This document shows positions 59,345-62,046 of a stretch of 64,000 bases of DNA, piece by piece. A program made the translations under genes and the position numbers. A model generated the notes under the pieces. That model was not told the origin of the DNA and searched no databases. It saw nothing but the letters and a program-made list of their open reading frames with translations. Position 1 is the stretch's first letter; each line of letters opens with the position of its first letter. This stretch comes from Candidatus Heimdallarchaeum endolithica. Lineage in GTDB: Archaea > Asgardarchaeota > Heimdallarchaeia > Heimdallarchaeales > Heimdallarchaeaceae. Location of the stretch: NCBI GenBank assembly GCA_021513715.1, contig CP084167.1:864001-928000 (forward strand). Reading direction: 5' to 3'.

Positions 59345-59908
59345 CTAATTGATTTATTGTCAAACATTGTTTAGTCATTCATTTCATATTTTATAGCAAT
59401 ATTGATTTTTATTTGAGTATTTTTCTGTATAGGATCATAGTTTCCTTGAGCCATTGCTATAATAAATTATAGAGAAATAGTTTATTCAATAATAATAGTT
59501 TGTTCATCAGCACCTTTCTTTTCAATTTCACATATTTTTTTAACTATAGTAAAGATGAATGTCTAAAAAAAAATTTGGGACAAATTAAAAGAAAGTAACT
59601 ATTTTGGATATTTTTTCTTGTTTTTTTGTAATTTATTTATTATAGCTTCTTCTAAATTTATTCCTAGGATTTCAGAAAGAGCGAATAAATATATTGCCAC
59701 ATCTGCAAGCTCGTCAGATAAATTATTCTTATATTGCTCACTAGTTAATTCGTTAAATATTTCTTCATCTGTTTTCCACTGAAAAAGCTCAAAAAGTTCT
59801 GCTAACTCTATTGAAATAGATAAAGACAGATTCTTTGGTGTGTGATATTTTTTCCAATCTCTCTCGTCTGTGACTTCTCCCACCTCTGAAGAGGGTGGGC
59901 TTCTCGAT

Positions 59909-61120
59909 TTATGTTGGACATACATTTGTTGACCTCCATATCGACGGTACAGCCACTGCACCAATACTCTTCGACAAGTTGTTGTCTTGGAGATACTTTT
60001 TCAGGATGTTTCGTGCCCCGTTCTGGTCTGCGTTCAATGTTGTATTACAGTTTTTGCAGACGTATAGGCCACGGTGTTTCCTATTGCTTTTACGTTTTGT
60101 TCCACACACACTACAAGTTTGGCTTGTATATTGTTCGCTCACCTTTTCTACCCGTATGCCAGACAACCGTGCCTTATGGGTTATCTGTTTGGTGAGTTTG
60201 TTGAACGACCAACTGTGTAGTTTCTGTCCAGATTTCTTGTTCCAATGTTTTCCTTTCCTGATGTTCTTTATGTCTCCTATCACTATTGTTCCAACCTTGT
60301 TCTTTTTTGCCTCCTCCACCACACTCTTTGATGTAGTATGGAGTATCTGGTTTACCTGTTGCTTCTTCTTTCTATGCATCCGCCCTATCGCTTTACTGGT
60401 TTTCTTTCCGTGTTGTTCCATCGTTGCTCGTTGAACACGTGCTATTTCCTTATTGAAATAGTGTTGGACTGCCAATGCTTGTCCACCACTATATATCGTG
60501 GAGTTCCCATTGGTATCAACGGTTGTTGCGAGATTAACTATACCCAAGTCCACCCCCATAATTCCATCATCGCTTGTATAAGGTGGCTCTTCTACTTCAT
60601 ATACAACATGAACCATCCATTTCCCATCTCGACATAGGATGGTTGCCATCTTCGCTATACCTTCTATCTCCCTCCATAGTGTTAGTTTGAACTGGAGTTT
60701 CTTTATGCCTGTCTCTTTACGATATTTTCTACTCATACTGAACCTTATAGTGTCACCATCCAGTTTGAATTGTTGGTAGAATATCAATGGCGACAACTTT
60801 TCCTTGGGTCTGAACCCCGGGGGGTGTGCTTTATCATCGGTTTTACGCAGTCTATACCAACTATTATATGCTTCTTGAAGTTCCTTACAAACTCGTTGAG
60901 CCGTCTGGCTTGGTAACAGTTGATACCAATGGTTCTTCCGCAGTAACTTTTTCTGTTCATACCAACTTGGTATCTCCCCTGTCTCCTTCCATGCCTTCCT
61001 CCGCTTATAATTATCTGTGTTATACAACTTGGTAGCATAAAACCCCAAATCACATAGTGTTGTTTCTTGTTTGGGTGTTGGATATATTCGATACTTGATA
61101 CACTGCTTCAAATATATCAC
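59909..61120 (-). CDS. tnpB: RNA-guided endonuclease TnpB (rearranged RuvC-II type)
   Basis: KYRIYPT, RuvC-I GVDLG, IVIGD, VSEQYTSQTCSVC, CKNC and RuvC-III NADQNGARNI motifs. Confidence 0.93.
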   Translation of the reverse strand: MIYLKQCIKYRIYPTPKQETTLCDLGFYATKLYNTDNYKRRKAWKETGEIPSWYEQKKLLRKNHWYQLLPSQTAQRVCKELQEAYNSWYRLRKTDDKAHPPGFRPKEKLSPLIFYQQFKLDGDTIRFSMSRKYRKETGIKKLQFKLTLWREIEGIAKMATILCRDGKWMVHVVYEVEEPPYTSDDGIMGVDLGIVNLATTVDTNGNSTIYSGGQALAVQHYFNKEIARVQRATMEQHGKKTSKAIGRMHRKKKQQVNQILHTTSKSVVEEAKKNKVGTIVIGDIKNIRKGKHWNKKSGQKLHSWSFNKLTKQITHKARLSGIRVEKVSEQYTSQTCSVCGTKRKSNRKHRGLYVCKNCNTTLNADQNGARNILKKYLQDNNLSKSIGAVAVPSIWRSTNVCPT

Positions 61121-61888
61121 ACTCCCTTCTGTTCTTCAATATATTTCTGAATGGTCTTATCCAATACGTGACCGTGAGTTGATATAAAATATCTCCATGT
61201 CCATAGTGTTGGCAATCGTGTAGTCAGTTCTTTGAACTCTCTACGAAGTTCGTGTGAAGTATAGCCCTTTATCTTGCCAATTATCTTATTCGGCGTTAAT
61301 TCAGGGTCGCCCTGTATGAATAGATGAACATGGTCTGGCATAACCTCCAATGTAATAACCTTGCAACCCATCATCTCTGCTCTCTCATATACCAATTCTT
61401 TCAACCTATCTGCCACATCTCCAACCAATACCTTCCTACGATATTTAGGGCACCATACAAAATGGTATCCTATGAAATGGACGTTTGTGAGGTTCGCATC
61501 ATATCCCGATGAGTCGAAATTTTAATTAATTTCTTCAGGACTCTACCCAATCAGTCAACAAATATGTCGTAATTTTGAAGACTGGTTTAAGAGAACATGA
61601 AAGACACAGTCTTAATTTAGTTCTCTAATGGGTTCATCTCCTGATCCAGGGCACTCATAATTCCCACAGGGAAGACCGGGTGTCGTAGGAATGAAACCTA
61701 CGTCTTTAAGCATCTAGCTCAAGACAAATAATCAATGAGAATTGAGTATATTAAGATCACTGAAAAGTTGTGACGCTCACCAATATCTTGCATTCTTTAT
61801 TATTGAAATGTGATTCTGATTGTTATTGGTTTAATAACTCCTCTAACTAAAAATTTAGCTTTTTACGTAAAAAAGAATTCTATGGCAT
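61117..61888 (-). pseudogene. tnpA: IS200-type Y1 transposase TnpA interrupted at codon 2-3 by a 376-bp insert
   Basis: Removing 61505-61883 yields 130 aa: MPYDANLTNVHFIGYHFVWCPKYRRKVL...DHVHL...KG..S...LW...YIEEQ. Confidence 0.88.
61505..61880. mobile_element. 376-bp non-coding, TIR-less structured insertion flanked by TAT direct repeats
   Basis: TAT at 61502-61504 and 61881-61883; no ORF of 60 aa or more; many stem-loops; excision restores tnpA exactly. Confidence 0.8.
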
Positions 61889-62046
61889 ATTATAGTATAT
61901 GGTTCCCACCCCATATAAGTGGTTCTATCTCGCTCTCATCCCACGACTAAAGCCGTGGGGTTTCCCGCTCTCGTCTCTAAATTCCACGATTATTTTAGTC
62001 AACTCTTCAATATTTGTCAATTTAATCAAAATAAAAAAGAGAAGGG

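Follow-up and report, generated by a model that had tools for sequence, protein, structure and literature searches.

A probable omegaRNA-only mini-transposon of TnpB ancestry interrupts the tnpA of an IS605 element in Candidatus Heimdallarchaeum endolithica

Introduction

Among described mobile elements, the stand-alone omegaRNAs and omegaRNA-bearing PATEs of IS200/IS605 (PMC10691335; bioRxiv 10.1101/2023.03.14.532601) are the nearest counterparts of the locus reported here, being gene-less, multicopy sequences composed of ends and a guide-RNA scaffold that need both TnpB and a transposase in trans. In other TnpB systems cleavage and repair retain the copy, and PATEs often encode omegaRNAs used in trans (bioRxiv 2023.03.14.532601). 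The omegaRNA of the ISDra2 TnpB (PMC10097598) derives from the tnpB 3′ end and the right end, spans ~220–250 nt, and contains a pseudoknot of an internal segment with the last scaffold bases. IS607 elements (PMC6188088; bioRxiv 10.1101/2023.11.20.567912) have a 2-bp core in their ends and target, short motifs repeated near the ends, and TnpB as cargo; serine recombinases use a 2-bp core inside inverted half-sites (PMC6188088). In the Cas1H-Asgard aCas1-TnpB group (PMC10691335), Thorarchaeota TnpBs are paired with a giant Cas1-like protein. Lastly, IS110/IS1111 elements (PMC11208160) combine a short core and subterminal repeats with a structured non-coding RNA, and their bridge RNA requires loops matching both target and donor (PMC11208160).

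Each of these systems has traits in common with an insert of a few hundred base pairs in Candidatus Heimdallarchaeum endolithica (genome G000, hereafter the host), whose replicon is a single contig of 3,326,783 bp (31% GC); two circular Heimdallarchaeum genomes, of 3.32 and 3.08 Mb, have been described (PMC8813620). The window is the whole stretch of 64,000 nt that was analysed (contig CP084167.1, positions 864,001–928,000), and five-digit coordinates without a genome or locus label refer to it. Compared with the IS200/IS605 omegaRNA PATEs, the insert (below, the mini) has symmetric inverted ends, AT at both junctions, and a palindromic target, in a host without an intact Y1 TnpA. In contrast to the ISDra2 omegaRNA, the mini region has no Rfam match, and in the TnpB clade to which the mini is related the usual RuvC-II position is occupied by G, while an invariant E directly precedes the zinc finger. 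That clade includes the Thorarchaeota TnpBs of the Cas1H-Asgard group, and both end in ACTCA.

Results

Insertion site, copies and ends

As originally predicted, the tnpA of an IS605 element is interrupted by a segment without ORFs, and deletion of 61505–61883 reproduced the in-frame TnpA of 130 aa. The predicted boundaries were 6 bp off, as the alignment of copies puts ATG at both ends and the body at 61511–61881 (Table 1). Removal of 61512–61884 yields a TnpA of 132 aa with the start MPSGYDANLTNVH, every residue of which is in register with a homologue that begins MTRGYQEELTCVH. The TAT/ATA repeat of 3 nt that had been taken to bound the segment is a chance feature of this single site. Because the mini sits in codon 2–3 of tnpA and no start in frame is left, the transposase of this IS605 has probably been lost; tnpA is the sole Y1 gene of the host genome. 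The interrupted IS605 (59861–61981) has GC-rich hairpins at 61940–61959 and 59879–59899. It is single-copy and lacks a close tnpA relative in the family genomes searched, which suggests a recent acquisition. Removal of the insert by splicing is unlikely because copies occur in both orientations relative to host genes, and an Rfam scan of the region gave no meaningful match and no intron family.

Table 1. Features of the mini and of the interrupted IS605 (window coordinates).
Feature	Position	Strand	Evidence
Mini-transposon body, 371 bp: left end, AT-rich spacer with promoter, predicted omegaRNA scaffold, right end	61511..61881	(-)	alignment of 18 genomic copies; frame restoration
AT core at left junction; target side GCC-AT, predicted TAM end	61882..61883	(-)	orthologous empty sites with single AT
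AT core at right junction, also the final two scaffold bases of the RNA	61509..61510	(-)	copy alignment, empty sites
Left end with subterminal TTTTACGTAA block (palindrome of the original prediction, 61860-61873)	61858..61881	(-)	same block and distance from AT in the host's family-A tnpB elements
Right end: subterminal hairpin and block of the inverted repeat, in this copy decayed to TTTTAATTAA	61516..61533	(-)	
Interrupted IS200/IS605 Y1 tnpA	61117..61888	(-)	132 aa without insert; PF01797 1e-38
tnpB of the interrupted IS605	59909..61120	(-)	403 aa; ~30% identical to the mini's parent clade (distant)
TATA-like box ~28 nt upstream of RNA start (putative promoter)	61747..61755	(-)	position kept in four divergent copies
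Predicted omegaRNA scaffold, 218 nt	61509..61726	(-)	HMM, CM, z -3.71
ATGAGT bulge, predicted pseudoknot with terminal ACTCAT (61509-61514)	61653..61658	(-)	97% paired across 29 sequences
Core-stem 5′ arm TCAGGA, pairs with TCCTGA 61535-61540	61639..61644	(-)	11 compensatory cells across genera, 0/500 shuffles; kinship inflates the test
Predicted guide, tnpA codons 3–9	61489..61508	(-)	by analogy with TnpB rules
Relic of last tnpB codons (TGTCTTGAGC; V-L-S frame in relatives)	61717..61726	(-)	10/10 match to tnpB 3′ ends of G043, G014

The mini is multicopy, as the copy search proposed with the original prediction showed: the host has 18 full copies (74–100% identical) beside several fragments, and ~10 copies occur in H. 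aukensis. Identity of the window copy to the main group is 85–87%, indicating that it is old or belongs to a side lineage; other copies are 99–100% alike. Partial copies were considered as possible longer parents and were rejected, being truncated minis with unrelated neighbours.

Terminal inverted repeats, said at first to be lacking, are present as imperfect inverted ends, identical at 15/24 positions in a young copy and decayed to 8/24 in the older window copy, with the 10-bp TTTTACGTAA block lying ~8 bp inside the AT. The terminal base varies, being G or A on the left and C or G on the right. Six filled sites of H. aukensis, two of them minis, correspond to orthologous empty sites with one AT in the host. 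Across 33 elements the target was C-AT-G, with C in 32/33 and G at +1 in 25/33 (p 1.6e-14); this target is palindromic, and beyond the four bases the targets differ. The mini is a dispersed mobile element whose inverted ends are imperfect, whose core is a 2-bp AT, and which inserts at C-AT-G. At one H. aukensis locus (L030; 2602597–2604279) a family-C tnpB element has inserted at CATG inside the pseudoknot bulge of a mini.

Predicted RNA and promoter

All of the stems named in the original prediction, and its perfect 14-bp palindrome (61860–61873), were found at the positions given. The interleaved AGAGAAC/GTTCTCT and AAGACTG/CAGTCTT stems, proposed as a pseudoknot or switch, exist as well, but they are mutually exclusive in the consensus fold, which uses AGAGAAC/GTTCTCT together with a shorter AGAC/GTCT hairpin. 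The pseudoknot that is supported differs, joining 61653–58 with 61509–14, and it changes jointly in family A of the host's TnpB elements (ATGATT/AATCAT) at nearly the same distance. Its placement at the 3′ terminus of the scaffold agrees with the architecture known for omegaRNAs from the solved ISDra2 structure (PMC10097598). Folding of the 218-nt 3′ part gave z -3.71 (0/200 shuffles as good); for the whole insert, z was -1.98 (minus strand) and -3.47 (plus strand). For the three most divergent copies the RNA part is 88–90% conserved versus 54–82% for the 5′ part, and paired columns vary less (p 6e-4), though higher GC could partly account for the conservation. Covariation among the minis alone is weak (13 pair-keeping versus 16 pair-breaking alleles; covariation term 0). 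The most conserved block across genera is a GA-rich internal loop by the core stem (61631–61640 with 61540–61554), which may resemble a kink-turn. A TATA sequence at similar spacing is present in minis of the relatives G002 and G017; a sigma-70 promoter scan was set aside as inapplicable to archaea.

Descent from tnpB elements

The 3′ 218 nt of the minus strand and the non-coding right ends of tnpB elements from related genera are homologous; the 3′ regions of those elements have conserved blocks in common with the mini and the same terminal ACTCAT. An HMM based on 24 such regions, all from tnpB elements of other genera (2/24 initially picked up through a weak match to the mini) returned 18 matches in 3.3 Mb, all of them minis, with E 6.5e-6 for the window copy. 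In the reverse direction, a covariance model of the minis recovered tnpB 3′ ends (E 1e-15 to 1e-11) and stand-alone minis in 13 relatives. The minis of G002, G016, G017, and G043 join a left end and TATA to the last tnpB codons, the RNA, and the right end; they are simple deletions of tnpB, and the RNA part of the window copy opens with the same 10 nt. By sequence homology, the 218 nt at the 3′ end trace back to a tnpB element's right end. Taken together, the homology to tnpB right ends, the codon relic, the TATA-like box, the covarying core stem, the terminal pseudoknot, and the tnpB-deletion minis of relatives argue that the window insert is very probably a non-autonomous, omegaRNA-only derivative of a Heimdallarchaeaceae TnpB transposon.

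The original prediction had read the insert as a bridge-RNA-only IS110/IS1111 mini-element. Its general idea holds, namely a non-autonomous mini made of ends and a guide-type RNA, mobilised in trans, with a short core, and the mini resembles IS1111 superficially in having a 2-bp core and inverted repeats near its ends; an AT core common to ends and target is a trait non-specific to IS110. The bridge-RNA identity itself is unsupported and extremely improbable. Neither a DEDD nor a Transposase_20 gene was found in the host genome, and the search for a DEDD parent with the same ends was likewise negative in five relatives with the same RNA, leaving six genomes without a DEDD gene. An internal hexamer that could pair with the end of the element itself, as a bridge RNA might show, is accounted for by the pseudoknot, and tnpB elements whose left ends differ retain it as well. 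Internal matches to the target flanks of each copy spanned 4–10 nt at scattered places, no longer than random 11-mers give, and the element is constant while its targets vary beyond four bases. The mini thus differs from IS110/IS1111 (PMC11208160) in having neither a DEDD recombinase nor target- or donor-binding loops, and in the TnpB origin of its RNA.

Returning to the omegaRNA reading, the host has ~12 elements of 1.85 kb with the same end motif that encode only a 486-aa TnpB (family A), and this resident family has the same architecture with a diverged scaffold sequence. Same-clade TnpBs of the host have intact-looking RuvC motifs, and their scaffolds differ in sequence from that of the mini. 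Searches with the HMM and the covariance model found no tnpB with the mini scaffold sequence in either complete Heimdallarchaeum genome, for which reason the minis may be orphans. The RNA motif was unmatched in viral contigs, and a metagenome scan gave only seven close tnpB loci. The host also has a second family of minis without ORFs, ~350 bp long, with TTTTGTACA at the ends and a matching 445-aa TnpB family (G000 238536, 396405, 699974, 2204201, and others).

By analogy with other TnpB systems, the TATA box would drive a transcript through the scaffold into the right flank, where host sequence beyond the right end would serve as the guide. TnpB made elsewhere would bind this RNA and cut empty alleles bearing a CAT-ending TAM and the guide sequence, after which repair would restore the copy. 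For the window copy the guide would fall within tnpA, so intact alleles of the broken element would be targeted, which is probably incidental. Elsewhere in the host genome, none of the predicted guides matched a CAT-preceded target perfectly over 12 nt.

A mini of the same origin could by now be a dead relic, a MITE whose RNA has no cognate TnpB and whose structure is kept by descent only. The absence of a scaffold-bearing tnpB from two complete genomes, the weak within-family covariation, and the decayed right-end block of the window copy favour this alternative, but conservation is higher in the RNA part and the stems than in the spacer, the TATA spacing is kept in copies only 75–80% alike, and independent minis in four relatives keep the promoter and the whole RNA. 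On balance, a dead relic seems rather unlikely.

Candidate mobilising enzymes

Four TnpB families of the host (26–55% identical to family A where measurable) and the second mini family have the same end type as the mini, and no transposase is carried by any of them. Clustering of neighbouring genes at ~94 family-A/B and 48 family-C/D loci revealed no transposase that recurs beside Heimdallarchaeaceae tnpBs. In a genome scan for other genes between mini-type ends, the plausible pairs among the matches listed enclosed only tnpB or nothing, and the remaining long end pairs, likewise among the matches listed, looked like chance pairings.

The symmetry of the ends around a 2-bp core would be accommodated by double-stranded recombination across AT, the likeliest enzyme being either of two short serine recombinases that are encoded on the chromosome and would act in trans, a tentative reading given somewhat less than an even chance. 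Both are stand-alone proteins of the host, 240 and 249 aa long (G000 316728–317450 and 405348–406097; L009:4232–4951), which begin with the catalytic domain and have no N-terminal HTH. They are present in 28/30 family genomes and 0/52 others, with ~75% identity across genera. A copy of an IS6-like transposase in the host (G000 141.9–142.6 kb; L240) has an internal inversion with AT at both junctions, a single event that counts toward a serine recombinase with modest weight. Against this model, neither recombinase lies inside any element, and two genomes outside the family have ACTCAT-ending elements with no recombinase homologue found there. The host genome has a single tyrosine recombinase (integrase), so the serine recombinases could possibly also serve a chromosomal role, e.g. 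dimer resolution.

The junction data are fitted equally well by an ordinary PATE moved by a Y1 (HUH) TnpA, in which the left AT would be the TAM end and the right AT the end of an element motif, with no core exchange. Right ends that finish TCAT after a hairpin, D-lineage relatives that insert after TGAT, and known omegaRNA-bearing PATEs (bioRxiv 2023.03.14.532601) would suit this alternative. On the other side, H. aukensis has no Y1 gene and the sole Y1 of the host is broken and has different, GC-rich hairpin ends, yet some copies are 99–100% alike despite there being no intact Y1; a matching intact gene could have been lost. Symmetric inverted ends and a preference for G downstream of the junction, here 25/33, are not expected of the Y1 family. 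A Y1 enzyme is regarded as improbable.

A DDE transposase that duplicates 2 bp (AT) on insertion, on the model of those DDE-linked TnpB groups that have inverted ends, is equally improbable. In its favour, such ends have been reported where TnpB is associated with a DDE enzyme (PMC10691335) and the target is palindromic, but no IS630 domain was found in five genomes, the four host DDE families inspected have unrelated ends, and the terminal base of the mini is not conserved. An ordinary MITE or PATE with a DDE or Y1 parent had been named as the contrary case in the original prediction; the parent is a TnpB element, which comes close to that description except for the mobilising enzyme, for which Y1 and DDE are minor candidates.

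IS607 was rejected as the mobiliser, since the host has no MerR-HTH serine TnpA, the core is AT and not GG, and the IS607 elements of relatives have other ends; the mini further differs from IS607 in having its repeats equidistant from both ends. In those IS607 elements (L209–L218) the MerR-HTH TnpA is paired with a long second ORF. The aCas1 of the Cas1H-Asgard group was rejected as well, since it occurs in 0/31 family genomes (the host and 30 others) but is encoded in Thorarchaeota and in three genomes from a different family; the minis also lack an internal hypervariable spacer, in contrast to Cas1H-Asgard elements. In Thorarchaeota, tnpB faces a protein of 1,400–1,900 aa with a Cas1-like N-terminus, which is the described Cas1H-Asgard group. 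Such giant proteins lie head-to-head with tnpB at L185:4576–9708, L193:3817–9303, L199:1–4779, and ~30 other loci (Thorarchaeota and G032); their Cas1-like domain has an invariant E, H, and D, the proteins also have a PD-(D/E)XK-like motif, and their long remaining part is unannotated. tRNA-like sequences adjoin several of these loci.

Overall, a serine recombinase is given the largest share of belief, short of an even chance, Y1 and DDE enzymes each receive a small and similar share, and what is left goes to an enzyme that was not seen.

Discussion

Gene-less omegaRNA minis are already known; this family is unusual in the symmetry of its ends, and the searches yielded no enzyme that is shown to move it. 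The ends and target of the mini fit neither Y1, IS607, nor aCas1, and no examined element encodes a transposase. The mini adds nothing to bridge-RNA biology, and it supplies the Asgard TnpB clade with a defined scaffold, a guess at the TAM (ending CAT), and 18 natural guides.

A broader proposal, doubtful at present, is that a family-wide set of TnpB transposons and omegaRNA-only minis never carries its own transposase, and that unrelated TnpB lineages with symmetric att-like ends and an AT core would be moved by a conserved chromosomal short serine recombinase specific to the Heimdallarchaeaceae (a resolvase with a truncated recombinase domain), with the RNA pseudoknot constraining the right end. 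If the serine recombinase were confirmed in this role, it would represent a compact enzyme for DNA insertion at CATG, and the elements would be RNA-guided selfish elements that rely on a gene of their hosts, which are closely related to eukaryotes.
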